Shown: positions 6,193 through 38,305 of the stretch, one piece after another
How the letters are laid out: each line of letters starts with the position of its first letter
Numbering within the stretch: position 1 is the first letter of the stretch
NCBI GenBank assembly: GCA_964373715.1
Contig: CAYJVR010000001.1
Coordinates: 269,888-333,887, forward strand
Reading direction: 5' to 3'
DNA from: an uncultured Planctomycetia bacterium
GTDB taxonomy: Bacteria > Omnitrophota > Gorgyraeia > 1-14-0-20-64-10
Length of the DNA: 64,000 bases
The notes under the pieces: generated by a model
What the model was told of the DNA's origin: nothing
What the model saw: the letters and a program-made list of their open reading frames with translations, nothing else
The model's database searches: none
Program-made: the position numbers and the translations under genes

Positions 6193-6211
6193 GCTTTTTA
6201 AGGCCTCCTTT

Positions 6212-7279: not shown

Positions 7280-7286
7280 GGGGGTA

Positions 7287-21645: not shown

Positions 21646-22713
21646 TTATGTTACAGCGCTGATGGCCGAAAGAACCTCTTCCGGCATGAGTTTTCTTAAA
21701 CAGGTGTTCTCCCATGGGCACGGCGGGAACCGGAATGTTTGATAGCAGGGACGGCAGGCCAGTCCTTTCGCTACGATCCGGTGGCCCGGCTTTCCTGGGA
21801 GAGGCCCGTAGACGGCGCCGTCCACAGGCCCAAAAATCGTCACTGTTTTTGTCCCCATCGAGGCGGCGAGGTGCATGAGCCCGCCATCGTTGCCTACCAC
21901 GAACGCGCATCTTTTGAGGATGCTTGCGATGGTGATCAAGGAGGGGATATCAGTGAGAGGAACCGGTTTGCTCCGCGATTGCTGCGCGACCGATTCGCAT
22001 AATTGTTGTTCCTGACGGTTGCCCAGCAGAAGGACGCGTGCGTTGTATTTCTCGCGGATTTGATCGGCGAGCTTGGCAAAATGGGGCGCGGGCCACTGTT
22101 TGTACGCGGCGTTGGGTCCCCAACTGGCTCCTCCTCCGGGGATAAGGGCGACCAGTTTCTCTTTTGAAGTGAACCCTTTTTCTCCGAGCATCCGGTCTCT
22201 TATTGTTTCGGTTCCGGAGGGAAGTTCAAAATCATGCCGGGTGGTGGAAGGCTTATGCAGGGCCATGAGCGGCAGGAGATCGAGGTAGTAGTCGTGGACC
22301 GGTTTAGCGTGGAACCCCTGGAGCGAGATCCGGTGTGTGAGAAATCGCCCCCGGTTTTTAAAATTGAAGCCGATCCTTTTCTTGATGCCGGCCAATGCGG
22401 CCGAGAAACCGATCTGCCAGCCGAGCGAGAGATCCACCAGTACGTCGATTTTCTCGCTCCGGATCTGTTCGACCGTCTTTTTGAGCTGGAGAAATCCCCC
22501 CATCTTCGAACGTTTCCACGCGGCGCGGAATTCGTCCTTTTCAAACACGGAGACATGGTCCAAGCTCTTCCATGCACGGACAAGCTCCTCTGTCCTGCGG
22601 TTACAGAGAAAGGAGAGGTAGTCTTTGGGTTTCGACTGGCGCAGAGCGTAAACGAGGGGGAGGCTGAAAAGAATGTCCCCTATCCCGAAAGGGTTGACGA
22701 TCAGTATTCTCAC
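21646..22713 (-). CDS. LPS heptosyltransferase (GT9, RfaF/WaaC/WaaQ family)
   Basis: MRILIVNPFGIGD N-terminus and NDGGLMHLAASMG C-terminal motif. Confidence 0.8.
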   Translation of the reverse strand: MRILIVNPFGIGDILFSLPLVYALRQSKPKDYLSFLCNRRTEELVRAWKSLDHVSVFEKDEFRAAWKRSKMGGFLQLKKTVEQIRSEKIDVLVDLSLGWQIGFSAALAGIKKRIGFNFKNRGRFLTHRISLQGFHAKPVHDYYLDLLPLMALHKPSTTRHDFELPSGTETIRDRMLGEKGFTSKEKLVALIPGGGASWGPNAAYKQWPAPHFAKLADQIREKYNARVLLLGNRQEQQLCESVAQQSRSKPVPLTDIPSLITIASILKRCAFVVGNDGGLMHLAASMGTKTVTIFGPVDGAVYGPLPGKPGHRIVAKGLACRPCYQTFRFPPCPWENTCLRKLMPEEVLSAISAVT

Positions 22714-23759
22714 AGGGCGGGTTCCGTTCTCTCAAGCAGCCGTTCTTCTGCCGCGGTTTCAACTTCCTGTACGGACGGGGAGAGAAGGATGCGGTTTTGG
22801 TGTCCCCACGGTTTCCAGCGGTTGAGCAGAGGCCCGTGGTTCCGCGGCGCAACAACAATCGTGTAAGTGCCGACGGCTGCTGCGACATGGGTCGGCCCGC
22901 TGTCGTTTGAAATAAGCAGGCGGCAGCGTCTTAAGAGGCCGGGGAGGGCGCCCAGCGGTACTCGGTCCACGAGGTCCGTCAATCCTGAAGGGACGGCTTT
23001 TTTCCACGATGCCGCCTGCTCCGCTGTTTGAGCTGCGCCGATAATTAATACCGGGTGCCCTTTTTTGGATAGCCGCCCTCCCAGCTCAAGGAACGATTCC
23101 AGGGGCCAGTTTTTCACCGGGTTGCTGGTCCAGGGGTGGATCGCAATCGGGCGGACCGAATGGGAGATGCCGTGTGAAAGGAGGATCCGGTCCGCGGTCT
23201 CTTCCCAGGCGGTTTGCGGCGGAAGTTCAATGACGGCCGGGCCTGGTTTTGTTTCAAGCAGGCGCGCTAGTTCGAGGTTATACTCCACCTCGTGGAGGGT
23301 GCGCCGGTTTTTGGAATCCTCGATGGAGCGATTTAAAAGGAATCCCCATTTTCTTCTATACCCCACCCGGATTGGAATACGTGCGAGGAACGAAGCGGTG
23401 TGAAAAAACCGGCTGGGGTTGAACACGACCGCCGCGTCGAACCGCTCAGCGCGCAGCGTCCTGCCCCACCGGAAAGAGCTTTTCCAGCCGCTGCCTTCAG
23501 CCGGATCCCACTCGATGATCCTGTCCAGATCCGGATGCCCTTCGAGCAGAGGTTCTTGGCCTTTCTGAAGAAGGAGGGTGATTTCCGACTCCCGGTAGGT
23601 TTCCCTGATCGCGCGAATCGCCGGCAGGCACATCAGGAGATCCCCGATGCGGTCTGTCCGTATCAAAAGGATGCGCCTGAGGGGACGGCTCAGGTTATTC
23701 CTCCGGCCGGCTTTTTCAAAAGGAATTGGCTTGAACCGAAAATAATTCCGGCCAGGCAC
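22710..23759 (-). CDS. LPS heptosyltransferase (GT9), second copy
   Basis: ILLIRTDRIGD and SNDSGPTHVAAAVG motifs. The true start may lie downstream of the tool start, because the ORF overlaps the ligase gene by 70 nt. Confidence 0.75.
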   Translation of the reverse strand: MPGRNYFRFKPIPFEKAGRRNNLSRPLRRILLIRTDRIGDLLMCLPAIRAIRETYRESEITLLLQKGQEPLLEGHPDLDRIIEWDPAEGSGWKSSFRWGRTLRAERFDAAVVFNPSRFFHTASFLARIPIRVGYRRKWGFLLNRSIEDSKNRRTLHEVEYNLELARLLETKPGPAVIELPPQTAWEETADRILLSHGISHSVRPIAIHPWTSNPVKNWPLESFLELGGRLSKKGHPVLIIGAAQTAEQAASWKKAVPSGLTDLVDRVPLGALPGLLRRCRLLISNDSGPTHVAAAVGTYTIVVAPRNHGPLLNRWKPWGHQNRILLSPSVQEVETAAEERLLERTEPAL

Positions 23760-24949
23760 CAGAAAAGAACCGCCTGCCGAAGCGAGTAAAGGTTCGTGTC
23801 GAACGCCGATTGCACCAGGAAGGCGAGCAGGCCTGAGAGCAGCCCCATCAAAGGCAGACCTGTTTCCGTATCAAGGAGGTGTTTGCGCAGGCTTTTTAAA
23901 CACTCGCGGAAAAGCCGCACGAGAAAAAGGAGAAAGCAGAAAAGAGAAATGACCCCTGTCTCCGCAGCGATCTGGAAGAAGCAGTTATGCGCATAGGCCG
24001 GGCCTTGGTTCGGGCCGGAGACGTAAGACATGTAATTGGCCATAAAGGTGTTCAGGCCGTGCCCCGTGATCGGCCGGGCTTTGATCATTTCCAACGCAGC
24101 GGCCCACATAATGATCCTCTCCTGCGACCCGGGGTCCGCAAAACCGATGGTTTTCAGAAGATTTTTCTGTTTGAAAACGACGAACACAAAGAGGCTGACA
24201 ACCAGCGATGTCCCCGCGATGAGCCACATCCGTTTGTTCTTGAAGTTAAGCAGGAGCAGGAACAGAATGCCTGAAGCCAGCCCCAGCATCGCCCCCTTTG
24301 ATTCCGTCCAGGAAATCGAGCCGATAAGCATCAGCCAGAGGGGCCACCCCGCCGCTTGCCGCCGAAGAGGCTGATGCATGAGAGAAGGAATGATCGCTAA
24401 GGAAACGACCATAAGAAATGTAGCCATATCAATGGGGTTGGAATAAGGCCCAACCATCCGCTCATAAATGAGTGGTTTTCCTCTGATGGGGTCCAGAGGG
24501 ACGCCGGGCCCTGAAAAATGGAGGATCGCCCATTCCTGAATCAATCCGTGCGCCACCACGAACAGGCTGGCGACCAGCAGCAGCTGGACGACCCGTTTTG
24601 CCGTTTCCGGGTGGTTTGACACGTCGGCGAGGATCAGGAAGAAGAGGATGTACTCGAATGTTTTGTAGATGAGGCCTTCCAAGCTGGTGAGAGGGTAGTT
24701 GCTGAATGAGACGGACCAGGCGCAGATCGCGGCGAAAGCGAGCAGTGGCCTCAGGATGGGTTGCCCTTCATTGGTTGCCCAAACCGATCGGGAATTGCCT
24801 TTCCACGCCTGCCAGCCTGCGAGCCAGGCAATCAGTGAAATGGGAAAAGCGATTTCGATTGCCGCTATTGAAAAAGGAATAGCGAAACAGAGGATGTAGA
24901 GCATCCCCCGCCCGATCTTTTCCATCAGAATTGTCCGGCTGTTTTTCAT
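23690..24949 (-). CDS. O-antigen ligase/polymerase family membrane protein (Wzy_C-type)
   Basis: 419 aa, about 11 TM helices, and a periplasmic loop with …RPITGHGLNTF…. Confidence 0.7.
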   Translation of the reverse strand: MKNSRTILMEKIGRGMLYILCFAIPFSIAAIEIAFPISLIAWLAGWQAWKGNSRSVWATNEGQPILRPLLAFAAICAWSVSFSNYPLTSLEGLIYKTFEYILFFLILADVSNHPETAKRVVQLLLVASLFVVAHGLIQEWAILHFSGPGVPLDPIRGKPLIYERMVGPYSNPIDMATFLMVVSLAIIPSLMHQPLRRQAAGWPLWLMLIGSISWTESKGAMLGLASGILFLLLLNFKNKRMWLIAGTSLVVSLFVFVVFKQKNLLKTIGFADPGSQERIIMWAAALEMIKARPITGHGLNTFMANYMSYVSGPNQGPAYAHNCFFQIAAETGVISLFCFLLFLVRLFRECLKSLRKHLLDTETGLPLMGLLSGLLAFLVQSAFDTNLYSLRQAVLFWCLAGIIFGSSQFLLKKPAGGIT

Positions 24950-26757
24950 GCCTCCGGGGCCGTGATCCCTTCCCCGGTTGGGATGGAGGTGGCCACCTGC
25001 CAGGTGATGCCGTTTTCTTCGCAGTAGGCTTGTATCTGTTGCAGGAGGTTTGCCGGCGGGCGCGGGATGGCAATAAGGATTTCCCGGATTCCGAATTCCT
25101 GCACGACCCTTCCGAGCTCTTCCCTGGATCCGAAGATCGGGATGCCGTGGATCCGTCTGCCGTGCATCGCCCTGTCGTCATCGAGGAAACCGACAATGCG
25201 TCTTTTTCCCTGCGCCGTCTGTTTGAGTTGGCGCAGCAGCATCTCCCCGGTGTCCCCGGCGCCTACGATAAGAACCGGCACGGCGGTCCGGATGGAGGCG
25301 TTAATCCACTCGTCGAGCAGGCGTTCGGCGACCCTCGCCCCGCTGATCGTCACGAACAGGAGCAGGCTGTCAATCACAAAGACCGCCCTTGAATAACCCT
25401 CGAACCGCCACAGAAACAAGATGGAGAGGGCGGAAAAGACCGATCCAAGTGTGACGGCCCGGAAAGTGTTGACCAGGTCCGGCAGGCTTGTGTATCTCCA
25501 AAGGCCCTTGTAGAGCCCGCAGACGAAAAAGCAAAGCATCTTGATCAGGATGATCAGAGGCAGGGATTTAAGAATCAGCCCGACCAAGTCCGGCGTCAGG
25601 TTGGCCTCGAACCGGAGCGCGTGGGCCATGACGTAAGAGGCGCAGATCAGCAGAAAGTCGATGATCACCTCGGCGATCCGGCGCTTATGCATCAGCATGG
25701 TGTCAATGAAGGTGATTTTTGGTTCGGTTTCCAGCGTTTTAGCCCCGGTGTAGACACGGACCCTGCTGAGATAGACCCCGCCGACCAGCAGCAGGCCGGC
25801 GGATAGAAGCCAAACGCCGGCTATAGCTAAGGCGTTCTGGTTTGCCAGGACAACGCTTAAGAGGCCGAACGCGGCGCTGATCCCGTAAAGAGTGAAGACC
25901 ACTTGACGGGTTGTCAGCCCCAATATCCCCAGCCTGTGGGAGAGGTGGTCCGTCCCTCCCTGAAACGGGTGTCTCCCGTGTATGACGCGGGAGATCGTGA
26001 CAAAAATGGTGTCGAAAATGGGGACGGCTAGAAGCAGTGTGGGCAGCCCTAGTATGCTCAATAAATGGGTGGATGGGTGTGTGCTCCCCATCAGCGTGAG
26101 TGCTCCGAGACCAAGCCCGAGGACCTGGCTCCCGGAGTCTCCCATGAAGATCTTTGCCGGAGGGAGGTTATACCGCAGAAACCCAAGCGTTGCTCCTGCC
26201 AGGCTGGCTGACAGCAGAGCGGTGGACCATACCCCGGCCTGTACCGCGTGCCACGTGCAAAAGAAGGCTGCGATGACGCCGATTCCGCCGGCCAACCCGT
26301 CCATATTGTCCATCAGGTTGAACGCGTTCATGATGAGGACAAGCCACCCGATAGTGATCGGGGTGGAGAGCCAAGGGAAAGTTTCAATCGGGAATTGGAT
26401 GCCGGAGAGCATGACGAGGCACCCGGCGATGATTTGGAGGACCAGCTTTGTAAACGGTTCGAGGCGTTTGACGTCGTCCCACGCGCCGGTGGCCAGCATG
26501 AGTGTTGTGGCGATAAAGAGGCCGATGAACCGGGCGTCCTGATGGATAAGGGATGCCATTGTCGCGAGAAAGCCGGCGGCGATTGCCAGCCCCCCCAAGC
26601 GGCCGATGGCCCTCCTGCCCCACCGGTCATTGGCCGGTTTCGAAACAGAGCCGATGTTTACAGCGAATTTCCGGATTTGCGGGGTCAGCAGCAGGGACAC
26701 GAACCATGCGCCCAGACCAACGAGCAGAACTTGTTCGAGCGGAGATCTATTGAACAT
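24946..26757 (-). CDS. WecA/MraY-family polyprenyl-phosphate N-acetylhexosamine-1-P transferase (GT4) fused to a C-terminal PglF/WbaP-type Rossmann (CoA-binding-like) domain
   Basis: GT4 motifs GAWDDVKRL, NAFNLMDNMDGLAGG and FMGDSGSQVLG. Extra TM helices follow, then VLIVGAGDTGEMLLRQL…RIVGFLDDD…GIPIFG. Confidence 0.75.
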   Translation of the reverse strand: MFNRSPLEQVLLVGLGAWFVSLLLTPQIRKFAVNIGSVSKPANDRWGRRAIGRLGGLAIAAGFLATMASLIHQDARFIGLFIATTLMLATGAWDDVKRLEPFTKLVLQIIAGCLVMLSGIQFPIETFPWLSTPITIGWLVLIMNAFNLMDNMDGLAGGIGVIAAFFCTWHAVQAGVWSTALLSASLAGATLGFLRYNLPPAKIFMGDSGSQVLGLGLGALTLMGSTHPSTHLLSILGLPTLLLAVPIFDTIFVTISRVIHGRHPFQGGTDHLSHRLGILGLTTRQVVFTLYGISAAFGLLSVVLANQNALAIAGVWLLSAGLLLVGGVYLSRVRVYTGAKTLETEPKITFIDTMLMHKRRIAEVIIDFLLICASYVMAHALRFEANLTPDLVGLILKSLPLIILIKMLCFFVCGLYKGLWRYTSLPDLVNTFRAVTLGSVFSALSILFLWRFEGYSRAVFVIDSLLLFVTISGARVAERLLDEWINASIRTAVPVLIVGAGDTGEMLLRQLKQTAQGKRRIVGFLDDDRAMHGRRIHGIPIFGSREELGRVVQEFGIREILIAIPRPPANLLQQIQAYCEENGITWQVATSIPTGEGITAPEA

Positions 26758-26789: not shown

Positions 26790-27776
26790 CTAAGAGTTGC
26801 TCGCAACCAGTTTCGGTTCCTTGCGGTAGTATCCGATAACGCTCTCGAGTATCTTTTTCAACCCCATAGTCGGGGTGAAGCCGGCGTAACGGCGGGCCTT
26901 GCTGATGTCAGGCACGCGGCGGAACATGTCTTCGAAGCCCTCTTCGTAAGCCTCGTTGTATGGGACAAACCGGATTTCAGACCTGCTGCCTGTGAGATCG
27001 ATAACCATCTGTGCTAACTGAAGGATAGTGACTTCCTCCTGGCTGCCGAGATTAAAGGCCTCTCCGGCCGATTCAGGAAGCAGCATAAGCCGGGTCATCG
27101 CCCCGACGGCGTCACCGACATGGAGGAAACACCGGGACTGTTTCCCGTTGCCGTAAACGGTGATCATTTCCCCCTTCAGCGCCTGTTGGACAAACCGGGG
27201 GATGACCATCCCGTAGTGGCCGGTTTGCCGCGGTCCCACCGTGTTGAAAAGTCGGACGATAAAGGTGGGAAGCCCCTTCTCTTTCCAGTAGTTGTACGCG
27301 AGGATTTCGTCCACCGCTTTCGAGGTGGAATAGGACCACCGGCTCTTTAATGGGGAGCCCAGTATCCGGTCTTCATCTTCCTTGAGGGAGGAATTGGTAT
27401 TCTTCCCGTAGATTTCGGAGGTGGAGGTGATCATCACCTTCCGTTGGTACCGGTTGGCCATCTCGAGCACGACTTCCGATCCGCGAATGTTAGTCCAAAG
27501 GGACTCCAGCGGTTTTTTAACGATTAGTTCGACTCCGACGGCCGCTGCCAAGTGGAAGATCGCGTCGCACCGCTCGGCGTATTTGTCAACAAGCCGTTCG
27601 TCCAATATTGAGCCGACCACCAACTGGAATTGCGGGCTGTTTCTTAAATGGGCGATGTTGTCCGTCCGTCCGGTGGACAGATTATCTAAGGCGACAATTT
27701 CATGCCCTTCCGAGATAAGGAGATCCGAAAGGTGGGACCCGATAAACCCCGCTCCGCCGGTAATGAGAAATTTCAC
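26790..27776 (-). CDS. NAD-dependent UDP-glucuronate decarboxylase-like extended SDR (UXS/ArnA C-domain type)
   Basis: [20 protein letters not shown] and YSTSK, with a GTG start preceded by an AGGGG SD. It lies in the same locus as ArnB/ArnC/ArnT-like genes. Confidence 0.65.
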
Positions 27777-27853: not shown

Positions 27854-29056
27854 TTAGCTTGAAACCAGGCTTTCATAAAGCCGGAGGATGTCCCGGATAA
27901 GCCTGTCGGCGCCGTATTTTTCCCGCACGTAAAGACGGCCCCGGCGGCCCATTTCCTGGCGCAAGGAGGCCTCTTTGAGCAGGAATTCCAGGCCTTGTGC
28001 CAACCCTTTGTGGTCTCCTGAGCGGACCAAGAGGCCATGCTCGCAGATGGAAAAGGCCCTCCCTTCCGAGGGGGACGGATCCTTGCCTCCCCTGTTCAAA
28101 ATATCCCTGACTCCGCCGACATCGGTGGAGATCACCGGCTTGGAGGCGGCAAGCGCTTCAATGAGAGAGACGGGGGTCCCTTCGTTGCGGGAGGTCAGGC
28201 AGACGACGTCCATCGATTGGTAGACGGAGGCCAGATCTTGCCGCCAGCCGAGGAATTGGACGCGGCCGGACAGGCCCAAACGCCGGCTTTCCTCTTCAAG
28301 GCTGGGGCGCAGCTCCCCGTCGCCGACGATCACGGTCTCAATCTCGGGCAGCGAAGTTGTGTCAGACAGCTCCCTGACCGCTTTGAGGAAAATGCCCGGT
28401 TCTTTGATCGGGACCAGCCGTCCGACAAAACCGATCCGCAGCGGTTTTCCCGGCAACGAGTGTCCGTTGCTGAGCTCAAAAAGGTTTTCCAGGTTAAGCC
28501 CGAGTGGGATCACCTCGATTTTTTCAGGAGCGGCGGCGCCCAGCCGCAGAAGGTCCTCTTTCACCGCTGTGCTCACGGCGATGAGCTTGTCGGTCCTTTT
28601 TGCCAGGAAGCGTTCGATGCCGAGAAAGAGGCGGTTTGCCCATGGCAGGAAATAGCCCTCCAGCGCATGGCCGTGGAATGTGTGCGCGATTTTCAGCGGG
28701 CGCCTTGTCGTGAGCCTGTAAAGGATCCCGGCCGCGCGGCCCAGCGTGCCGGCTTTTGCGGTGTGGGTGTGGAGTATATCCGGGCGCTCCTGCCGGAGAA
28801 TCCGGAATATTTTCAGGAAGGCGGCGAGGTCTTTAAGCGGGCTGAGGGAACGCTGCAGTTGGGAGATGCGGACCATCCGGCAGGGGTATTTCTCGAGCAG
28901 ATAGCCGGCATCGGCTTCGGAGGCAGACACCCGGCCTGTCACTAAAATTGTTTCCCACCGGGCGTTGTTGAGCGCGTTGGAGAGGATGGCGACGTGGTGC
29001 GCCGGCCCTCCCACGTTCATTCGGGCGATCACGCGGACGATCTTAAGTTTTTGCAT
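27854..29056 (-). CDS. glycosyltransferase family 4 (GT-B fold)
   Basis: C-terminal VGDGELR…FLGWRQD…[27 protein letters not shown], a GT4 signature. Confidence 0.75.
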
Positions 29057-31172
29057 CGCTGTTACGGGAGAAAATGCCCAGAGGGAATAAAAGAAGGCAC
29101 GCCAGGATCATCGGCAGGCGCAGCCTGAAGAGAGTCCCCGCGTTGGGGATGACCAGCCCAAGAAGAAGAGAAGAGAGAAGGATAAACCCCAGGAGAGACC
29201 AACTAACGGTTTCTCCAGCGCGCAGAAGTCGCCACCCGCCCCGTATTATCCAGGGCAGCAGGAGGTAAAACAGCAGGGTTTCAACGCTTCCGAAAATTCG
29301 GAAAATCCCCGTTGTGGCCTCCTGATCAAACCACTGAAGAGGAAAAGGGGCAAACCAAGCCACTAAAAGGGCTCTGGGGGTGAACCGGACCAGGTCCTCC
29401 GGTTTTCGGAAGGTCACCTCAGGATAGAGCACAGAACGCCCTCCTTCGCCGAGGATGCCTCTGCGGACGTTCATCAAGCTTTGGAGAGAAGCCTGTCCGG
29501 CGAAGGATCTGCCGATGGCCTGCAGGTGCGGGAGAAAGAGAGATGAGATGGGCCGCAGCGGAAGCAGGGGCCAGATTTCGGAAGGCAGTATTCCCCATTC
29601 GTAGGTATATCGGTTGTAAAGAGATCTATGGAGTATACGAAGATTTCCCGTTCTGCCCCGCTGCTCGATCATAATTGCTTGCGGGTTGAAAATAGTGATC
29701 GACTCGAGATTCGCCATGCCGCGATGGTTTATTTCCCCATCTATTTGTCCAGTCACCGAGATGTCCCAGACCACATAATCGGTGGAGCGGACGACCAGTT
29801 TATCTGGATGCGCGAAGACCGTGCGGTGTTTCATGCCGCGGAAGGCGCGGACAATTTCCCTCACGCGGTTCATCGGCCAGATTTGCAGGCCGATCCTTTT
29901 CCATGAAAAGGGTTCCTTTGTTGAAGAGAGGACCGCTGATTCGCCGATAAATCGGGCAGACTCCTGACTTTTCGGTTTGCTGAGCTCAATGAACTTAGGG
30001 TTGACGATCCACATCCGGTGCACCCTCTTATCGGTGAGCTCCAGGATTCGCGGATTGGCCGCACCGGCGGAGAGAGCTTCCTCAGGGGATCTTTCAATGA
30101 TGGTTTTGGAAGGCATGGTGGCTAGCAGAAGCTGGCGGAGCTTGAACGGTTTTCTTGCCTTAACGTGTTTTGTCTCTTGTTTGGTTTCTTGTTTTGCCTC
30201 TTCCTGCATCAGTTTTTTCAGCACCATTTCAATCGAAAAAGAATCTTCCGAGAGCAGCCAGTGCTGTTGTTCTAGTCCCTCCTCCTGTTCCTCAAATTCC
30301 AGCAGCGGCGGAGGTTCGTTATAGACGATGATGAACCATCTCTGCGGATAGGGTGTCTGGTAGGCGAAGGCCATGGCGAATGTGGAGATTATGGCGATGC
30401 CTAAGGCGATGCAGGCCGGTCGGAATCGTCTGTGGAGGAGGTTCCAGAGAAACGTGGAGCCGAAGGCCAGGAGCATGGAGAGAGCCATGGCGATGCCCAG
30501 ATAGGACCGGAATTTAGTAATGGCAGCGGCGGATACGAAGAGAATAAGCCACCAGGAAAGCCAGTTCAAAAAAGAAACAGGGCGCTGCGCCGTGATTTGT
30601 CGCCAGAGGGTAATGCCGGAAGCAAGAACCCCGAGCGCCAGCAGACCGCAGGAGGAATCTTTCAGCAATTGCGTGGACCAAAGAATGCTGGAAGGCCATA
30701 GAGCCACCAGCCAAGCGGCCAGCAGTGCGGTACGCTTTCCCGAGAGATGATGAACAATCCGATAGGCGAGCAGTACCTGAACAGAGGAGATAAAAACGTT
30801 GATGAGGATTCCGTTCAAAGGGTTCGGTCCGAACAGCCTGTAAATTCCTGCTAAAAGGATGTAATACTCGATTGCGCCGTGCGTGAAAACGGGATAAGGG
30901 ACGCCCGTTTTCCAGGAAGAAAGGATCCGGATGGCGTAATCATGGGAGGCTACCGAATCCATCGCGAAATACCAGAACCCGGGCACCGGGTGTTGTTGAG
31001 CGGAGAGAATGGGCCATTTGTAGAAGGAGGCGAGATAAAAGAACAGGGCCGCCGCCAGGCGCAGGCCCGCGGCCCACCCCACCAGTTTATAGAGCGAACG
31101 GTCCGCGCCGATCCAGCGGGACAGAAGAACCAGCGCGCAGGATAAGCCGGCAAGGAGAGCCAGAGGAGTCAT
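29043..31172 (-). CDS. large polytopic membrane protein of unknown function (possible GT-C-like)
   Basis: 709 aa with an N-terminal TM bundle, an acidic/lysine low-complexity segment (EQEEGLEQQ…KQETKQETK), a central soluble region and C-terminal TM helices. No confident family match from sequence alone. Confidence 0.4.
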   Translation of the reverse strand: MTPLALLAGLSCALVLLSRWIGADRSLYKLVGWAAGLRLAAALFFYLASFYKWPILSAQQHPVPGFWYFAMDSVASHDYAIRILSSWKTGVPYPVFTHGAIEYYILLAGIYRLFGPNPLNGILINVFISSVQVLLAYRIVHHLSGKRTALLAAWLVALWPSSILWSTQLLKDSSCGLLALGVLASGITLWRQITAQRPVSFLNWLSWWLILFVSAAAITKFRSYLGIAMALSMLLAFGSTFLWNLLHRRFRPACIALGIAIISTFAMAFAYQTPYPQRWFIIVYNEPPPLLEFEEQEEGLEQQHWLLSEDSFSIEMVLKKLMQEEAKQETKQETKHVKARKPFKLRQLLLATMPSKTIIERSPEEALSAGAANPRILELTDKRVHRMWIVNPKFIELSKPKSQESARFIGESAVLSSTKEPFSWKRIGLQIWPMNRVREIVRAFRGMKHRTVFAHPDKLVVRSTDYVVWDISVTGQIDGEINHRGMANLESITIFNPQAIMIEQRGRTGNLRILHRSLYNRYTYEWGILPSEIWPLLPLRPISSLFLPHLQAIGRSFAGQASLQSLMNVRRGILGEGGRSVLYPEVTFRKPEDLVRFTPRALLVAWFAPFPLQWFDQEATTGIFRIFGSVETLLFYLLLPWIIRGGWRLLRAGETVSWSLLGFILLSSLLLGLVIPNAGTLFRLRLPMILACLLLFPLGIFSRNSDAKT

Positions 31173-31178
31173 CTTTTT

Positions 31179-33143
31179 TTACACATTTTCGTGGACCGCG
31201 GTTGTTTCCTTGGCCAGAGGTTTCTCCTGATGCATATAATGCTGAAGCCACAACTCAAGCATAAGCAGAGTCCACAGATGATGGCCGTAATCCTTTTCAC
31301 CCGAAATGTGCCTTGAAACGAGGTTTTTCAGCCGCTCCGGAAGTATGAGTTGATGGATCTGCGCTTGTGAAGAAAGAAGGATCCCCGACATCCACTCCTT
31401 CAGGGGTCCCCGGAACCATCGGCCGACCGGGATCGAAAATCCCTGCTTCGGCCTCTGAAGGTGCTGTTGGGTGAATATCCCTTTTTGCGTCTCTTTCAGC
31501 AGGTGTTTCAGAGACCGTCCCTTCACTTTCATCTGTCCAGGAAGGCTCGCGAGAAATTCCATGAGCTGGTGGTCCAACAGAGGGGCCCTGGCTTCGAGGC
31601 CGTGCGCCATCGTGCAGATGTCCATCTTGACGAGCAGGTCGTTGGGCAGGTAGAAGGAGGTATCCACCGCCAGCGCCGCATCCACCCCGTCCAAATCTTC
31701 CAGCCCGTCGAAAAGCCTGTTGAGCAGCGCCGCCGACTTAGAGTGCTTCGTTTGCGCTGCCATCTGCGGAGTGTAAAGCGCCCGCTTCTCCTCATCGGAA
31801 AAGAGGCCCGTCCAATGGAGCCAGCGCATTCCCCTCGGTATGCCGGCGGCCCGGAAGAATCTCTTTGGGCTCATCCGACCGTTCAACAGGGCCAGGCGGT
31901 CGGGCCAGGCTCCCATCACCGGTTCGATCAGTCCCCGCCGCAGCCAGACAGGGAGATCGTTGTAAGAATCGGCCAGACGCATCGCTAAATGCCGGTAATA
32001 CCCGCCGAACGCCTCATCGCCGCCGTCCCCGTTTAAAACGACGGTGACTTCCCTGCTGGCTATCTGCGCCAGGTAGTAGGTGGGCAGCGCGGAGGAATCG
32101 GCGAAAGGCTCTCCGAACTGCCGGATCAGTTTCGGGATGATCGCGGAGGCGTTCGGCCGGACGATCTGGTCATGGTGGTCGGTGTTGAATTTCTTGGCGA
32201 CCGCCCGGGCGTAAGGCAGCTCGTTGAAGCTTGCCTCCTCGAATCCGATGGAGAATGTCTTCAGCCTTTGCCCGCTCATCAGGCGGCTGGCGACCGAAAC
32301 GACGGCGCTGGAATCGACCCCTCCGCTTAAGAGAACCCCGAGCGGAACATCGGAGCGGAGCCTCAGGCGGACCGATTCCTCCAGCAGCCTGTTGATCTCT
32401 TCGACCGCCTCTTCGGCGCTGATTTTGATCTTTCGGTGGAAATCCAGCTCCCAGTAGCGGGTGAGCTGAAGTTCCTTCCCATCGTACAGCAGGTAATGGG
32501 CCGGCGGGAGTTTCTGCACCCCTTCGAAAGCGGTTCCGGGGGAGGGCACGCACATGAAGGAGAGATAGTGGTGGATTGCCTCCCTGTCGAGCCGCCGTTC
32601 GATCGCCGGGTGCTGCAGCAGAGATTCCAGCTGGGAGGAGAAGACCATCTGTCCGGAGCGGAACGCGTAAACAAGCGGTTTTTTCCCGAGGCGGTCGCGC
32701 GCCAGCATCAGGCGCTGACGGGTTTCATCCCAGAGGGCGAAGGCGAACATCCCTCGGAGATTCCGGACGCATTCGGGACCTTCAGCTGCGTAAGCCTGCA
32801 GGATCACCTCAGTATCGGATTGCGTCCGGAATTTACAGCCTTTGGCAGCGAGCGAGCCGCGGAGTTCCCGGTAGTTGTAGATTTCACCGTTGAAGACGAT
32901 TTGGAGCGCGCCGGTTTCATCGGCCATCGGCTGGGCGCCGCTGGCCAGGTCAATGACCTTCAGCCGCCTGTGCCCTAAACCGCAGGATATCCCTCCGTTC
33001 GGCCGGCCGGCCTGCGCGGCCGGGTTCAGGTAAAACCCTTCCGCGTCCGGTCCACGGTGGTTTAAAGCGGAGGTTATCCGTTTTAAAAGTTCCGGCTCAA
33101 TCGGCCGTCCTTCCCGGTCCACAATCCCTGCGATACCGCACAT
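31179..33143 (-). CDS. asparagine synthetase B-family glutamine amidotransferase
   Basis: MCGIAG Ntn nucleophile and SGGVDSS PP-loop. In a glycan locus this family usually amidates a sugar carboxylate. Confidence 0.85.
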   Translation of the reverse strand: MCGIAGIVDREGRPIEPELLKRITSALNHRGPDAEGFYLNPAAQAGRPNGGISCGLGHRRLKVIDLASGAQPMADETGALQIVFNGEIYNYRELRGSLAAKGCKFRTQSDTEVILQAYAAEGPECVRNLRGMFAFALWDETRQRLMLARDRLGKKPLVYAFRSGQMVFSSQLESLLQHPAIERRLDREAIHHYLSFMCVPSPGTAFEGVQKLPPAHYLLYDGKELQLTRYWELDFHRKIKISAEEAVEEINRLLEESVRLRLRSDVPLGVLLSGGVDSSAVVSVASRLMSGQRLKTFSIGFEEASFNELPYARAVAKKFNTDHHDQIVRPNASAIIPKLIRQFGEPFADSSALPTYYLAQIASREVTVVLNGDGGDEAFGGYYRHLAMRLADSYNDLPVWLRRGLIEPVMGAWPDRLALLNGRMSPKRFFRAAGIPRGMRWLHWTGLFSDEEKRALYTPQMAAQTKHSKSAALLNRLFDGLEDLDGVDAALAVDTSFYLPNDLLVKMDICTMAHGLEARAPLLDHQLMEFLASLPGQMKVKGRSLKHLLKETQKGIFTQQHLQRPKQGFSIPVGRWFRGPLKEWMSGILLSSQAQIHQLILPERLKNLVSRHISGEKDYGHHLWTLLMLELWLQHYMHQEKPLAKETTAVHENV

Positions 33144-33151
33144 GCGCTAGA

Positions 33152-34123
33152 TCATCTCCCAGCCGCGGTGTTTGCGGCAGCTATGTTTTCCCGGTACCAG
33201 GCGATTGTCCGCGTTAGACCCTCTTCGAGGGAGATCTTCGGCTGGTAGCCGAGCGCCGTAGTTTTCGAAATGTCGAGGAGTCTTTTAGGCTGTCCATCCG
33301 GTCTTGAAAGGTCCCATTCCAGCGTTCCTTTAAATCCGGTCAGGTTGGAGACCATTTCGGCCAGCGTTTTAATCGATGTTTCCTTGCCGGATCCGATATT
33401 GATCGGGTTCGGTTTACCCCATTTCTCCGCCACGAGCAGGATCCCCTCGACGGCATCCTCAACAAAAAGAAAATCGCGCGTTGGATTGCCGGACCCCCAG
33501 AGGATTACCTTGGTTATTTTTTTCTCTTCGGCCTCGGAGAATTTCCGGATCATTGCAGGGACCACATGCGATTTTTCCAAATCAAAATTGTCCCCTGGAC
33601 CGTAGAGGTTTGAGGGGATCGGGTTGACGGCCAAGAACTGGTACTGCTCGTAATAAGCTTTGGATTGGATGGCCAGCAGTCTCTTGGCGAAGCCATAAGG
33701 GGCGTTGGTCTCTTCCGGGCTTCCGTTCCATAGGTGTTCCTCTCGAAAGGGGATCGGTGTGATGTTCGGGTAAGAGCAGGTTGTGCCGACCGCCACGAAT
33801 TTCTCTACTCCGGCGCGGCGGCCCCATTCCATCAGTTGGATTCCCATGATGGCGTTTTCGTAAAAAAATGTGCCTGGCAGTTTCTGGTTGATGCCGATGC
33901 CTCCGACCACTGCCGCCAGATGGATTAAAATCTCCGGTTTGCTCACCTCGTAGAGTCTGCGTATCTGGGCCTCTTCCCTGAGATCAAATTCGATCCGGCG
34001 CGGAACGAAAATTTCCCTGCAGCCTTTTTCCCGGAGTTTCGCCACCACGTGGGAGCCGAGGAATCCGGCTCCTCCGGTGACCGTGACCCGTTTCTTTTCC
34101 CAGAAACCCATTGTTATACCCAT
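33152..34123 (-). CDS. GDP-L-fucose synthase family NAD(P)-dependent epimerase/reductase (Fcl-like)
   Basis: VTGGAGFLGSH and the Fcl-type motif NLYGPGDNF…SHVVPAMIRKF. Confidence 0.6.
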   Translation of the reverse strand: MGITMGFWEKKRVTVTGGAGFLGSHVVAKLREKGCREIFVPRRIEFDLREEAQIRRLYEVSKPEILIHLAAVVGGIGINQKLPGTFFYENAIMGIQLMEWGRRAGVEKFVAVGTTCSYPNITPIPFREEHLWNGSPEETNAPYGFAKRLLAIQSKAYYEQYQFLAVNPIPSNLYGPGDNFDLEKSHVVPAMIRKFSEAEEKKITKVILWGSGNPTRDFLFVEDAVEGILLVAEKWGKPNPINIGSGKETSIKTLAEMVSNLTGFKGTLEWDLSRPDGQPKRLLDISKTTALGYQPKISLEEGLTRTIAWYRENIAAANTAAGR

Positions 34124-36000
34124 CCTTTCAGCCGGTAATAGAGGATTGCCATGTATTCGTGCGCAATCCCTTCGATCTGGCTCAGCGTCATGCCGGGCCG
34201 TCTGCGGCTGTAGTAATAGCTTTCCTCAACCGGAGCCGCCACAACCTCAAGCTCAGGAGCTGTCTTTGCGAAAGATAAAAGGGCCCGCCGCATGTGGTAG
34301 GGGGAGCTGACCAGCAGAATCCGTTTCCAGCCGTTTTCCTTAAGTATTTTCGCCGTATAGAGAGCATTTTGCCGGGTGTTCACCGCTTTTGTTTCCAGCA
34401 GGATCGCCTCGGGCGGGATGCCCAGGGATACAGCCAGCGCCTTCATCACCTCCGGCTCTTGAAAGACATAGACATAACCGGAGGAGAAGATGAGCTTATC
34501 GGCATACCCTGATTTATAAAGTTCCACTGCCCGGTTTACCCGTTCTTCATAGCCCTGGCCGGCTTTCCCGGATTCCCCCACCCCGCCTGCCAGCACCACG
34601 ATCGCGTCCGCTTTTCGCAGGGCGTCCGATAGTTTTAACGGCGCGGCAATAAACCAGGGAAGCGGTGAAAAAAACAGAAGTCCTGCGAAGAGGCCGGCCG
34701 CGGCAAGGCTGGTTATGATTTTCCGCTGGGCGTTCCGGTAGAGCCCAAGGAACAGATCCGGCCATTTCAGCGCTTTATTCGCCGCCCGTTCTTTGATCGT
34801 GGTCTCGATCAGCGCCGCCATCCGCCCGATCTTCACCTGCCAGCTGTTCTCCCGCGCGACCTCGATCCGCCTGGAGATTTTTTCTTCGCCCGATCCGAGC
34901 GCTTTTTCGATCCCTTGGGCGAACTCCCCCGGATTGGAGGCGATCGAGATCAGGGGTCCGTGGCGCTGATTGAAAAGAGAAATTTCTTTCAGAGGGGTCG
35001 AGACGACCGGTTTGCCCATGGCCAGATACTCGTTCGTCTTGGTCGGGTAGACGTTATCGGTGTACTCCGTCAGCCGGTAAGGGATGGTGCAGACATCGAA
35101 CGAACGAATGTAATCGGGCAACAGATCGTGCGGTTTTGGCCCCAGGAAGTGGACGTTCGGCAGTCCCCGGAGAAGGCTGACGTCGGTTTGGATCGGGCCG
35201 ACTAAGACGAATTGGTAAGCCCCATTCCGCGAGGCGGTTTCTTTGAGCAGATCCAGGTTCACCCACTTGTGGATTCCCCCCACGTAGCCGATTCGAGGCG
35301 CTGGTATCCCGGCCATATCTTCGGGCAGCGACCGGATATCGCTGTTCCTCGCTCTTTCGAAAATATCGTAATCCACGCCGAACGGAAAAAGATGAACGTT
35401 GGAATTGTGCCGGCAGGCGTACTGCTCAAGCTGATGAGAGGTGACGAAGACCATATCCGCCCGTTCGAACATCTTCTCCTCCGCCCTGAGGATCTTTTTG
35501 GCGGAGGGCGAACTGGCGGCGAAATTGTCTATGCAGTAATAGATGACCAGTTTTGGATCGAGAGAGCGGATCAGGTCCATTGCCAGCGGCGTCGGCAGGA
35601 ACGTCCAGACTACCGGTTTGTTGAATTGGACCGCCTTCATCCACCGGCCCAGGTCCAGTGTGATCAGGAAGCGGTTGATCCATTGAGCGATCCGGGAGTA
35701 AGGGAAAGGCAGTCCCAGCGGGGAATAAACGTACAGGTTCGGCCGTTCCTGCCGGAATCCGCGGACGCTGTGCCACCAGCGGGCGAGTCTTTTCTTGAGC
35801 CGCGGCATATCGGAGAGGCTGACCGAGCGGATCCCCGTGTTTTCTATGAACAGGACACGGTTTCCCTGGGCGGCGAGGGTAGACATGATCTGCTGGTGGC
35901 CCTGCCAGATAAAGTCGAAATCTATGGAGGAAATGCAGACGATGTCCTGCGGCGCGGCAACGCCGAGGGTCCGTGCGGCGCCGGGTTCTCCTGTCATCAT
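34114..36000 (-). CDS. fusion protein: GT4-like glycosyltransferase domain, TM helix, DUF218 (YdcF/ElyC-like) domain
   Basis: GT-B C-terminal signature TNEYLAMGKPVVSTP, a TM segment LAAAGLFAGLLFFSPLPWFIAAPL, then DUF218 motifs AIVVLAGGVGESG…RQNALYT…ILLVSSPYHMRRA. Start set at the ATGA-overlapping ATG (36000). Confidence 0.6.
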   Translation of the reverse strand: MMTGEPGAARTLGVAAPQDIVCISSIDFDFIWQGHQQIMSTLAAQGNRVLFIENTGIRSVSLSDMPRLKKRLARWWHSVRGFRQERPNLYVYSPLGLPFPYSRIAQWINRFLITLDLGRWMKAVQFNKPVVWTFLPTPLAMDLIRSLDPKLVIYYCIDNFAASSPSAKKILRAEEKMFERADMVFVTSHQLEQYACRHNSNVHLFPFGVDYDIFERARNSDIRSLPEDMAGIPAPRIGYVGGIHKWVNLDLLKETASRNGAYQFVLVGPIQTDVSLLRGLPNVHFLGPKPHDLLPDYIRSFDVCTIPYRLTEYTDNVYPTKTNEYLAMGKPVVSTPLKEISLFNQRHGPLISIASNPGEFAQGIEKALGSGEEKISRRIEVARENSWQVKIGRMAALIETTIKERAANKALKWPDLFLGLYRNAQRKIITSLAAAGLFAGLLFFSPLPWFIAAPLKLSDALRKADAIVVLAGGVGESGKAGQGYEERVNRAVELYKSGYADKLIFSSGYVYVFQEPEVMKALAVSLGIPPEAILLETKAVNTRQNALYTAKILKENGWKRILLVSSPYHMRRALLSFAKTAPELEVVAAPVEESYYYSRRRPGMTLSQIEGIAHEYMAILYYRLKGWV

Positions 36001-37103
36001 TGGAGCCTCAGGAGGCCGCGCAGCGATGGGGCCCGCGGGGCCAGCTGGCTTAAGGGCCACGTCCACCGGACGAGCAGGAGAAAGTTGATCAGCTGCCTGG
36101 CTAGGTTTTCCGGGAGCCCTCCCCGGATTGCCCTGAATTGGGCGAGGAGGTCTTTGAATTCCATGTCGCTGAGCCGGTAATCCATCAGTTCGAATACCGT
36201 CCGGTACCGGCGGTCCTCCGCGCCGGATTTTAAGCCCTTGTTGAAATAGAGGCTGATTTCATAAGCCAGCATCCAAAAGAGGTATTTGTGCGTCATCCCA
36301 CGCCAGCGTTGGACGAGCGGGCTGTGTTCGGGCCATCGTTTGAGGTGGGCGTCGCAGTAGCCGAGGATTGCTTCCCGGTAATCTTTTGTGACCGACAGCG
36401 CTGACCGGCGGCTTAATGATTTCGTATGCAGGCGGTAGGAATAAAGCTGTTTCGGAATATGCCCCACCCGCTGCCGTTCGGCGATCTCAAACCAGAGAAC
36501 GAAATCGCCGAACCCAATCGGTCCTTTCTCGTTAAAACGGGAATTTCCCAAGGCCGAGCGCCGGATCATTGTGCCGGAAAGACCGACGCAGGATCGGCCG
36601 GTCTTCATCGTCTGCTCAATGTAGGCGGTCCCTTCCTGGAGTTCCGGCACTGCGTGGTCCCGTGCGCCGAGAGTGCGTCCTTCTTCATCAATCAATGTCC
36701 AATCCGGGGAGACGAAGCCGGCTTCCGGCTGGGCGGTGAGAAAGGAGACCTCTTCACGTATCAAGGAGGGCCTGAATTCGTCGTCGTCATGCAGGAACGC
36801 GATGAATTCCCCTTGGGACTGTTCGATGAGGTCGTTGTGGTTGGGGTAGATGCCAATATTTCTCTCCCGCCGGATATAACGGACGCGGGGATCCGCCGCC
36901 GCGGCGGAACAGCAAAGGGCCCGTGTGTCATCCGTGGAGGCGTTGTCGCCGATAAGGATTTCAAGGGCCGCGTAATCCTGCGTGAGGATGCTTTCCAGGC
37001 TGCGTTTGAGGAAATTTGCCCGGTTGGCGGTCGGCACACAAATCGAGACAAGGGGTCCGTTCACCGGGCGGCCTCGGAAGAAAACCTTTTCCAGAACGCG
37101 CAC
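35997..37103 (-). CDS. glycosyltransferase family 2
   Basis: VSICVPTANRANFL…ILIGDNASTDDT…DDDDE. Confidence 0.7.
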   Translation of the reverse strand: MRVLEKVFFRGRPVNGPLVSICVPTANRANFLKRSLESILTQDYAALEILIGDNASTDDTRALCCSAAAADPRVRYIRRERNIGIYPNHNDLIEQSQGEFIAFLHDDDEFRPSLIREEVSFLTAQPEAGFVSPDWTLIDEEGRTLGARDHAVPELQEGTAYIEQTMKTGRSCVGLSGTMIRRSALGNSRFNEKGPIGFGDFVLWFEIAERQRVGHIPKQLYSYRLHTKSLSRRSALSVTKDYREAILGYCDAHLKRWPEHSPLVQRWRGMTHKYLFWMLAYEISLYFNKGLKSGAEDRRYRTVFELMDYRLSDMEFKDLLAQFRAIRGGLPENLARQLINFLLLVRWTWPLSQLAPRAPSLRGLLRLQ

Positions 37104-38305
37104 AAGCCTACGGCCGCGAAGATGATCATCAGCGGTTCAATCTCCCACCGGTGCCTGCCTTCCACATAAAAGAGGGCTTGGCTGAAAGAGACGGAGAAGG
37201 CGGCCAGAGCAAACAGAAAAGCCCCCTTTCTGGCGGAGGACCGGGGCGAAGTTGCGGAGATCACCAATCCCGCTATCGCGAAAACCAGCAGCGTGCCATA
37301 GTACATGATGTAGATCCTCAGCCACTTCAATGGGTAAAGAAGCCCTGCGTGCGGCGAAAACCACCAAAAGTAAAACAGTTTTTTGAGAAACAGGTAAGAA
37401 ACGGCTTCAGGGTTGGCGCGCATAAAAGCCACGGCCGCCGCCCTGAATTCCCTGTTCTGTTCGAACTCATTCATTTTACCAATTATCGAGGAGAGTTCGG
37501 GCGGCAATTCTGAGATGACAGAAACAGGGTTTGGCGAAAGGGTGTACGAGGTGCCGGAGGCTCCGGGATGGTTGCCGTACCAGAGGTTCACCCCAGTGTC
37601 GGTCCTCAGAGGGACGACCCGTCCGTAAAGGATAAGACCTCGCGCCATAATGGGGGTGAGCACCGCCAGACCGGATAGGCCGATCATGCAGACCGCCCAG
37701 ACGGCGCGGTTTGCTTGCCGGCGGTTGGTTGAAAGGAACCAAGCGGCCCATAACAGGAAGAAAGGGCCGAACGTTGCCCGGGAGAGGACAGTTAAGCCGG
37801 CCGCTGTCCCTACTCCGGCTAATTTCCAGAAGCTCCAGCTTGGTTTGGCCCGTGCGAACAAATAGAAACTCAGCGCGATAAGAAAGACGTCGAGCGTCTG
37901 GGAATGGAGCCTTCCCGCGTAGACCAGGTTGCCGGGGTGGAGCGAGACGAGCAGGCCGCACAGCAGCGCTGTCCGGCGCCCGAAAAAGATCAGTGCTGTC
38001 CTGTAAACCAGCAGGGCCGTCGCCGCGAACAGTACCCCCTGAAGGATAAGGACGATTGCTTCCATTCCGCCGCTGATTTTCAGGATTCCTGCCAAAAGGA
38101 CAGGGTAAAGGGTCGGCCCGTAAAAATGGTAGGGGGTCCCGAGATAATCGTAGACAAAACCCCTTCCCTCAAGGATATTCCGCGCGATCTGTGAGTATTC
38201 CCACCTCTGCGGGGAAGAAAACTGCCCGGTTGCCGCGGCAGCCGCTGCCGCCGCGCAGAACGCGAGGAGAAAAAGGAGGAGCCGCTGTTTTGTCGCCCGG
38301 CTCAT
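37061..38305 (-). CDS. ArnT/PMT-like GT-C membrane glycosyltransferase, paralog A
   Basis: Polytopic protein with conserved blocks shared with the 41728..43065 gene (GVNLWYGNHPGASG, FYFWWFSPHAG, SQALFYVEGRHRWE). Start set at MSRATKQRLLLF, the ATGA overlap at 38305. Confidence 0.6.
   Translation of the reverse strand: MSRATKQRLLLFLLAFCAAAAAAAATGQFSSPQRWEYSQIARNILEGRGFVYDYLGTPYHFYGPTLYPVLLAGILKISGGMEAIVLILQGVLFAATALLVYRTALIFFGRRTALLCGLLVSLHPGNLVYAGRLHSQTLDVFLIALSFYLFARAKPSWSFWKLAGVGTAAGLTVLSRATFGPFFLLWAAWFLSTNRRQANRAVWAVCMIGLSGLAVLTPIMARGLILYGRVVPLRTDTGVNLWYGNHPGASGTSYTLSPNPVSVISELPPELSSIIGKMNEFEQNREFRAAAVAFMRANPEAVSYLFLKKLFYFWWFSPHAGLLYPLKWLRIYIMYYGTLLVFAIAGLVISATSPRSSARKGAFLFALAAFSVSFSQALFYVEGRHRWEIEPLMIIFAAVGLCAFWKRFSSEAAR

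Follow-up and report, generated by a model that had tools for sequence, protein, structure and literature searches.

A widespread membrane protein joining a predicted glycosyltransferase to a DUF218 domain in an Omnitrophota glycan gene cluster

What does a DUF218 domain do when it is covalently joined to a glycosyltransferase (GT)? The question is raised by a reverse-strand gene in a stretch of 64,000 nucleotides (contig CAYJVR010000001.1, positions 269,888 to 333,887; hereafter the window) from an uncultured bacterium assigned by GTDB to Omnitrophota. A preliminary description, made from the sequence, had read positions 34114-36000 as a single gene in which a GT-B domain is connected through a transmembrane (TM) helix to a DUF218 domain of the ElyC/YdcF type, and had suggested that this link hints at the function of DUF218. 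DUF218 is a very large bacterial family; among its members are ElyC and SanA, which influence envelope integrity, permeability to antibiotics and the way in which the shared lipid carrier is used. What had been said of the family agrees with the literature to 2026: DUF218 has no defined activity (PMC3879167, PMC12212991, PMC12176290, PMC13251401), and a role in envelope polymers and undecaprenyl phosphate (Und-P) homeostasis is reflected in the ties of ElyC to enterobacterial common antigen (ECA) and Und-P, and of SanA to lipid II.

We found that the fusion is a real, widespread membrane protein. It is fairly probable, in our opinion, that it serves a pathway for polyprenyl-diphosphate-linked glycans as a two-sided enzyme, whose DUF218 domain acts on the lipid-linked glycan outside. 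This reading is carried by the architecture and its conservation, both folds, the conservation of functionally important SanA residues and the constant gene surroundings; from these, we infer the topology, substrate and chemistry of the fusion. The link of DUF218 to envelope glycans and Und-P was already known, and the fused architecture was already present in public databases. To a specialist, the fusion is thus no surprise; it is useful as comparative support for current ideas on SanA and ElyC.

A single gene carried by many genomes

Residue numbers refer to the 629-codon translation of 34114-36003; subtraction of 1 gives the count from Met-1. On the reverse strand, the open frame runs without interruption over 34114..36066, which amounts to 650 aa when counted from an upstream GTG. 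Within it, the uninterrupted 628-aa coding sequence was recovered with exactly the ends given in the preliminary description, and both motifs quoted there, AIVVLAGGVGESG and SSPYHMRRA, were found in the translation. We regard the ATG at 36000 as the likely start, because it shares ATGA with the TGA stop of the upstream GT2 (glycosyltransferase family 2) gene, because gene callers on other contigs chose the same 628-aa start, and because the N-terminus is poorly conserved in the family alignment, residues 1-12 of the fusion having a predicted local distance difference test (pLDDT) score <50 in the AlphaFold2 (AF2) model. The 650-aa GTG start was dropped on these grounds.

An identical 628-aa protein is encoded on contigs from two sequencing runs, ERR4904390 and ERR3478687, and full-length homologues were found in thousands. 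This rules out an assembly or frameshift artefact, and the one-gene claim thus withstood the check for a frameshift or stop between the halves. As AF2 also gives one continuous helix over the junction, we consider it practically out of the question that two separate genes were joined in error.

With the full-length fusion as query, 3,287 homologue matches were obtained at E<=1e-5. In each of the best 120, the alignment took in no less than 94% of the query, identity was 51-68% and both Pfam domains were present. In a scan of one genome per species, relatives were present in at least 368 species genomes. Among the best 80 of these 368 carriers, 29 were labelled as Omnitrophota and 34 as Acidobacteriota (mostly Vicinamibacterales), and the remaining 17 as Rokubacteriota, Methylomirabilota, Nitrospinota, Desulfobacterales and others, some of these last labels looking unreliable. 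The closest species representative (L001) is an Omnitrophota metagenome-assembled genome (MAG) encoding a protein with 66% identity to the fusion, from which we take Omnitrophota to be the probable phylum of the window. Databases name the fusion automatically as 'YdcF family protein' or 'ElyC/SanA/YdcF family protein'; it is neither rare nor new to them. No published description of a GT-DUF218 fusion came up in literature searches; apparent 'DUF218' matches in one paper (PMC3482391) proved to be DUF2185 and DUF2314.

Some longer relatives carry a third domain, N-terminal to the GT-TM-DUF218 core. In P0003, the extra domain is a GT2, equivalent to the GT2 encoded by the upstream gene in the window, and in the 995-aa proteins P0133 and P0144 an N-terminal GT2 is presumed from their length alone. 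P0012, P0042 and P0056 begin with a polysaccharide deacetylase of carbohydrate esterase family 4 (CE4), which is notable on the predicted cytoplasmic side, and P0050 begins with a class-I methyltransferase domain.

Two domains joined by a predicted membrane helix

A scan for PF02698 and structure prediction, both proposed as checks in the preliminary description, bore out its domain assignments. AF2, run on a 79-sequence alignment of the fusion family, returned a full-length model (mean pLDDT 92.3, predicted TM-score [pTM] 0.78) consisting of a GT-B domain, a long helix with a membrane segment and an alpha/beta domain (Table 1). Both halves are under equal constraint, so neither of them is a decaying passenger: mean column conservation, expressed as majority-residue frequency, was 0.73 and 0.67 in the two GT subdomains and 0.71 in DUF218, and the linker helix with the TM segment reached 0.55.

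The N-terminal half is predicted to be a glycosyltransferase domain and is strongly conserved. It matched Glyco_trans_1_4 (PF13692) at E=6e-14 with 53 bits against a cut-off of 27, and its N-terminal part gave a weak match to Glyco_transf_4, under the cut-off (E=6.7e-4). In line with its preliminary classification as GT4-like, its Foldseek relatives were MshA, BshA, PimA, PglA and WaaG (E 1e-18 to 1e-12; TM-score on target 0.65-0.74 for GT4 structures), with which it shares the two-Rossmann GT-B fold at 11-17% identity. PglA, PimA and WaaG are GT4 enzymes with lipid-linked acceptors. Unlike the predicted arrangement of the fusion, the listed solved GT4 relatives do not combine a TM helix with an extracytoplasmic domain. 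Only fold comparison was informative on relatives, because sequence searches of PDB chains with each half gave nothing useful (best E=0.054, uracil phosphoribosyltransferase, and 0.098, sucrose-phosphate synthase).

The canonical retaining motif of GT4 enzymes is E-X7-E. Its second glutamate corresponds to E325, invariant in the 79 proteins; position 317, that of the first, is occupied by asparagine in 54 and histidine in 22 and never by glutamate, and the domain was therefore filed as GT4-like and not as canonical GT4. The GT half contains dozens of invariant polar residues (E325, K322 and H245 among them) and invariant motifs of its own, namely WQGHQ, ENTG, GYxGGxHxW and PTKxNEY. WQGHQ, ENTG and PTKxNEY are peculiar to the fusion family and are not those of the solved GT4 relatives.

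The best NCBIfam match of the GT half was TuaH (NF047676). At 111.3 bits, it lies far under the equivalog cut-off of 550; TuaH orthology was rejected and the domain is called TuaH-like. The adjacency of tuaG and tuaH in B. subtilis is mirrored in the window by the GT2 gene and the fusion's GT, the upstream GT2 having TuaG as its best match, and the GT4 protein of the module described below also matches TuaC of the B. subtilis teichuronic-acid operon. TuaH differs from the fusion in having neither a TM helix nor a DUF218 domain.

As for the C-terminal half, it is a genuine DUF218 domain: over profile positions 1-132 of 133 it scores 104.9 bits for PF02698 (E=3.9e-30), where the cut-off is 27.6. 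Modelled alone, the alpha/beta domain (467-626) reached a pLDDT of 89.4. Its top Foldseek structure by TM-score was E. coli YdcF (3ca8_A, TMq 0.65, E=1.2e-4), the other matches being PP-loop ATPases and other nucleotide-binding folds of the HUP class. YdcF (PDB 3CA8), the only solved DUF218 structure, has the same Rossmann/HUP-like fold, at 14% identity in the Foldseek alignment; it lacks the equivalent of SanA H149, reading PTMQRR where the fusion has PYHMRR. Among the 79 members, the AGGVGESG loop following strand 1, R488, E516, T543, N546 and E616 were invariant or nearly so, and the same was true of SSPYHMRR, which contains H570, R572 and R573.

The domain was compared with the E. coli paralogues SanA, ElyC, YdcF and YgjQ. 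They are 19-27% identical to it, and each matched the DUF218 profile of the family at E values of 1e-9 to 1e-12. In the profile alignment, SanA residues R69, T125, H149 and R152 correspond to R488, T543, H570 and R573, which were present in 77-79 of the 79 members. Substitution of these four SanA residues abolishes function and leaves protein stability unharmed (PMC12176290, PMC13251401). The fusion family thus preserves the very pocket residues on which SanA depends. For SanA, it has been proposed that the pocket binds some molecule of the inner membrane or modifies it (PMC12176290, PMC13251401).

Orthology to ElyC or SanA was rejected, since the scores fell far under the NCBIfam equivalog cut-offs (32.5 bits against 205 for ElyC, NF007794; 22 bits against 363 for SanA, NF008092). 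The fusion's DUF218 is consequently a member of the family and not an ElyC or SanA orthologue. ElyC (YcbC) and SanA are periplasmic proteins anchored in the inner membrane, and share with the fusion the Pfam domain, the fold and a preceding membrane helix. All three are tied to pathways with Und-P-linked glycans: ElyC to that of ECA, whose synthesis WecA initiates, SanA to that of lipid II and the fusion to a module with a WecA-like enzyme. However, ElyC and SanA are standalone proteins of ~240-260 aa encoded outside glycan operons, while in the fusion DUF218 is covalently attached to a 400-aa GT and encoded inside a glycan cluster. The AGGVGESG loop, too, is specific to the fusion family, unlike ElyC and SanA.

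The preliminary claim that a hydrophobic helix joins the two domains agrees with hydropathy, which revealed a single hydrophobic stretch, located between them. In the AF2 model, helix 388-445, unbroken over 58 residues, extends from the GT domain into the membrane segment, and a short helix (448-456) follows after a conserved (T/S)-Pro break. Across the family, the order of the segment is an A-R-R-R cluster, a 16-residue hydrophobic core, (Q/H)-(T/S)-P-L-x-W and then P-L-(R/K), with invariant W450, P455 and L456 and a frequent glutamate (E454) in the belt.

We predict that the GT half is cytoplasmic and DUF218 periplasmic, on the basis of charge bias, cysteine depletion, the position of extra domains and the periplasmic function of SanA. 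Within 15 residues of the helix, lysine and arginine averaged 5.0 on the N-side versus 1.8 on the C-side, with more on the N-side in 66 of 72 proteins. Cysteines per 100 aa amounted to 0.07 in DUF218 versus 0.90 in the GT half; DUF218 was cysteine-free in 71 of the 79 proteins, and every GT domain had cysteine. All extra fused domains (GT2, CE4, methyltransferase) are N-terminal, that is, on the GT side. Finally, SanA still works if it is secreted into the periplasm in a form that lacks the anchor (PMC12176290).

Conserved gene order and the possible role of DUF218

The fusion lies in a co-directional glycan cluster of ~50 kb, extending from ~13 kb to beyond 63 kb of the window. Proteins of the window were compared with 80 related loci, and neighbours were counted in the 51 loci whose sequence extends 7 kb or more downstream of the fusion and in the 49 that reach as far upstream. 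A fixed order emerged: the fusion, often an AsnB-type gene, then GT4, an epimerase and a WecA-like gene, sometimes followed by an O-antigen-ligase-type (Wzy_C) gene and two GT9 genes. At least one of WecA-like, GT4 and AsnB was found downstream in 46 of the 51 loci. The WecA-like gene followed the fusion in 31 of 51 loci and preceded it in none of 49, and 215 of 217 neighbour matches were on the strand of the fusion. The arrangement of Wzy_C and two GT9 genes was repeated in L007, L011, L012, L065 and L088. The conserved GT fusion, together with its fixed order relative to a WecA-type gene, provides independent comparative evidence for a polyprenyl-diphosphate-linked glycan pathway.

Standalone relatives of the DUF218 half were sought by an exhaustive search with this domain alone, which gave 13,411 cluster representatives at E<=0.001, 50 of them at E<=1e-30. 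Listed among the best 150 were GT fusions (~600-630 aa), proteins of 995 aa and numerous ~200-215-aa proteins made up of a TM helix and DUF218 (34-51% identity); shorter proteins, possibly fragments, were also listed. Five standalone relatives of ~210 aa (P0140, P0162, P0166, P0168 and P0177) were examined for gene context, of which P0140 is on a 726-bp contig and hence has none. P0162, in locus L088, is 42% identical over helix and DUF218 and occupies the same slot of the module as the fusion: it is overlapped by 4 nt by a different GT-B gene, and GT4 (47% identity to its counterpart in the window), epimerase (74%), WecA-like (60%) and GT9 (49%) genes follow. This DUF218 clade is therefore part of the module in fused as well as in standalone form. 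P0166 is encoded between two GT2 genes, with a 4-nt overlap with the first, and P0168 is preceded by a GT and a methyltransferase.

Neither GT proved to be a detached half of the fusion. For the GT adjacent to P0162 this was rejected (BLASTP E=0.85), and the one near P0168 shows at most a very remote resemblance (22% identity, E=0.9). As the GT beside P0162 is not homologous to the GT of the fusion, there is no clean pair of fused and split versions.

According to the two-sided model, the fusion would be a bitopic protein in a pathway of the lipopolysaccharide/O-antigen type. The WecA-like transferase would start an oligosaccharide on Und-P, and the GT-B domain, at the cytoplasmic face, would add a sugar to it from a nucleotide-sugar donor. 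The long helix would cross the inner membrane once and put DUF218 on the periplasmic side, its conserved pocket and its aromatic C-terminal helix being turned towards the membrane. There, DUF218 would bind, and probably chemically process, the same lipid-linked glycan after flipping, and the use of carrier lipid on the two membrane faces would thereby be coupled. The likeliest chemistry, in itself still rather doubtful, would be hydrolysis or transfer at the diphosphate-sugar end, preferred because of the Gly-rich loop at the phosphate-binding position, the invariant Arg, His, Thr and Glu residues, and what the literature reports of mutants: without ElyC, Und-P is trapped in ECA synthesis, and without SanA, more lipid II is available (PMC12212991, PMC3879167, PMC13251401).

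A bolder generalization, which we put forward tentatively and regard as rather doubtful, is that DUF218 domains are periplasmic enzymes cleaving or transferring at the diphosphate-sugar end of glycans linked to undecaprenyl diphosphate, acting as a release valve for carrier lipid that is here hard-wired to the GT committing the carrier. If so, one activity would explain both the trapping of Und-P upon ElyC loss and the rise of lipid II upon SanA loss, and the fusion with the WecA-like enzyme, GT4 and epimerase would make up a self-contained system for reconstituting the reaction. The compact set of initiating transferase, GT4, epimerase and fusion could build a defined lipid-linked substrate in vitro. 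As to the preliminary suggestion that the fusion hints at DUF218 function, it stands insofar as the likely substrate class and compartment are narrowed, strengthening the idea that DUF218 acts on lipid-carrier-linked envelope sugars; the chemistry itself is not revealed by it.

Several points weigh against the two-sided enzyme. i) Co-location in a cluster is no proof that both domains act on one molecule, and P0177 (212 aa, L093:3583-4221) is a close relative outside any glycan context, so that not every member of the clade is tied to a glycan operon. ii) The HUP/PP-loop-like fold class normally binds nucleotides, and YdcF is soluble, cytoplasmic and a reported binder of S-adenosylmethionine (SAM), unlike the predicted-periplasmic domain of the fusion. 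iii) SanA E182, a further residue essential there, can be paired with invariant E616 of the aromatic helix at the C-terminus by position only, since the profile alignment ends at SanA residue 174. iv) The GT half has no first glutamate of EX7E. v) The hydrophobic core is short and followed by the S/T-Pro break; were this a re-entrant, monotopic helix, DUF218 would be in the cytoplasm. vi) All 80 listed carriers are MAGs or single-cell genomes.

The last-named topology leads to an explanation that we judge quite unlikely, in which a re-entrant helix-break-helix anchors both domains in the cytoplasm and DUF218 is a YdcF-like, nucleotide- or SAM-dependent tailoring enzyme at the inner leaflet. 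The core of only 16 residues with its conserved (T/S)-Pro break, which we presume to be comparable with the re-entrant helices of monotopic enzymes such as PglC, would fit it, as would the fold matches to nucleotide-binding HUP/PP-loop proteins and to cytoplasmic YdcF, and the Gly-rich beta1-alpha1 loop at the canonical phosphate-binding position. However, the segment after the break is an aromatic and charged interfacial belt (W450, E454) and no second hydrophobic arm, the C-flank has few positive and often acidic residues, DUF218 is nearly free of cysteine, unlike the GT, and its conserved residues are those of SanA, which is active in the periplasm. Another alternative keeps DUF218 outside and makes it a non-catalytic sensor of a product or intermediate, switching the cytoplasmic GT through a rigid helix as a transmembrane feedback regulator. 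The continuous helix from GT to membrane has a geometry suited to signalling, ElyC is described as exerting post-transcriptional feedback on ECA-PG in response to periplasmic cyclic ECA (PMC12212991), and sequestering of lipid II by SanA has also been considered (PMC13251401). We nevertheless find such a regulator unlikely: its supposed signalling part, the linker helix with the TM segment, is the least conserved of the protein, the invariant polar and charged pocket (R488, E516, T543, N546, H570, R573, E616) looks more catalytic, standalone relatives occupy the same slot without any covalent output domain, and both SanA papers favour a possible enzymatic activity (PMC12176290, PMC13251401).

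Lastly, DUF218 might be the sole enzyme if the GT-like half had lost canonical GT4 catalysis and served as a non-catalytic scaffold or acceptor-binding module. The asparagine or histidine in place of the first EX7E glutamate across the family, the weak Pfam match of the N-terminal GT subdomain, and the so far putative activity of TuaH, the nearest named family (PMC6265299), would all be consistent with this. We consider it very improbable, as the GT half is the most conserved part of the protein, with dozens of invariant polar residues and the ENTG motif, and as its model is a complete and confident GT-B. A strict EX7E is lacking in many GT-B families.

Other genes of the cluster and the window

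Coordinates of the fusion, its parts and the genes of the module are collected in Table 1.

Table 1. The fusion gene and its neighbours in the window (positions counted from the first nucleotide of the window)
Feature	Position	Strand	Details
Complete coding sequence of the GT-TM-DUF218 fusion	34114..36000	-	628 aa + stop; open reading frame, ATG start, identical product elsewhere
GT-B domain, GT4-/TuaH-like, predicted cytoplasmic	34849..35946	-	aa 20-385; Pfam, NCBIfam, AF2, Foldseek
Long helix, predicted cytoplasmic part	34723..34842	-	aa 388-427; ends in conserved Arg-rich cluster (A-R-R-R in most)
Hydrophobic membrane segment (predicted)	34636..34722	-	aa 428-456; hydropathy, family columns, positive-inside statistics
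DUF218 (ElyC/SanA/YdcF-type) alpha/beta domain, predicted periplasmic	34117..34611	-	aa 465-629; Pfam, model, Foldseek
Span of conserved pocket residues	34156..34590	-	AGGVGESG 472-479, R488, E516, T543, N546, H570, R572/R573, E616
Upstream GT2 glycosyltransferase	35997..37103	-	best NCBIfam match TuaG; stop overlaps fusion start by 4 nt
Downstream short-chain dehydrogenase/reductase (SDR), GDP-L-fucose-synthase-like	33152..34111	-	begins 2 nt past fusion stop
AsnB-type glutamine amidotransferase	31179..33143	-	downstream of fusion in 19/51 loci, upstream in 12/49
Module GT4 glycosyltransferase	27854..29056	-	downstream of fusion in 23/51 loci; 47% identity in L088
Module SDR epimerase/dehydratase	26790..27776	-	identity across loci: median 65%, maximum 88%; 74% in L088
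WecA/MraY-type polyprenyl-phosphate sugar-phosphate transferase with C-terminal CoA_binding_3 region	24946..26757	-	presumed initiating enzyme; 60% identity in L088
O-antigen-ligase-type (Wzy_C) gene and two GT9 heptosyltransferase-family genes	21646..24949	-	end of module

Besides GT2, GT4, GT9, O-antigen-ligase-type, WecA/MraY-type and AsnB genes, the cluster contains three GT-C (PMT_2) genes, SDR enzymes, aminotransferases, methyltransferases, KpsC/S-like genes and a NeuB block. The PMT_2 genes are ArnT-like and located at 20067-21632, 37061-38440 and 41728-43065, all on the reverse strand. Their presence suggests that the pathway of the DUF218 protein includes several periplasmic glycosylation steps from polyprenyl-phosphate sugars.

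The WecA-like protein (603 aa) is an unusual chimera of two superfamilies of initiating enzymes. PF00953 is found at aa 78-224, and the C-terminal part (~365-591) matches the N-terminal TM and CoA_binding_3 portion of WbaP/WcaJ-type phosphoglycosyl transferases (TIGR03025, TIGR03023, PF13727).

Neither a Wzx/Wzy flippase-polymerase pair nor an ABC exporter was found in the window by Pfam, the only related gene being Wzy_C at 23690-24949. Within the glycan cluster, four open reading frames (ORFs) of 399-709 aa without a Pfam match (29043-31172, 49203-50423, 53304-54626 and 57448-58647, reverse strand) are candidates for an exporter, a flippase or a polymerase. For the ORF of 709 aa, NCBIfam gave no match either, and a counterpart (47% identity) was seen in L001 alone. 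Two KpsC/KpsS-like Capsule_synth (PF05159) ORFs, at 43881-45365 and 45331-47946 on the reverse strand, one of 871 aa, are likewise shared only with L001, the closest of the 80 related loci.

As for the standalone relative without glycan context, P0177, its gene adjoins an ATPase_2/DUF234 gene and a restriction-enzyme-like gene. Two adjoining paralogues resembling galactose-1-phosphate uridylyltransferase (DUF4921) are encoded at 5197-6324 and 6212-7363 on the reverse strand of the window, a short way beyond the glycan cluster. Towards the other end of the window, the reverse-strand block 54623-61089 contains HisF-like, HisH/HisF-fusion-like, NeuB and class-III aminotransferase genes, which is typical of the synthesis of nonulosonic acids (pseudaminic/legionaminic-type) with amidino or amino modification.

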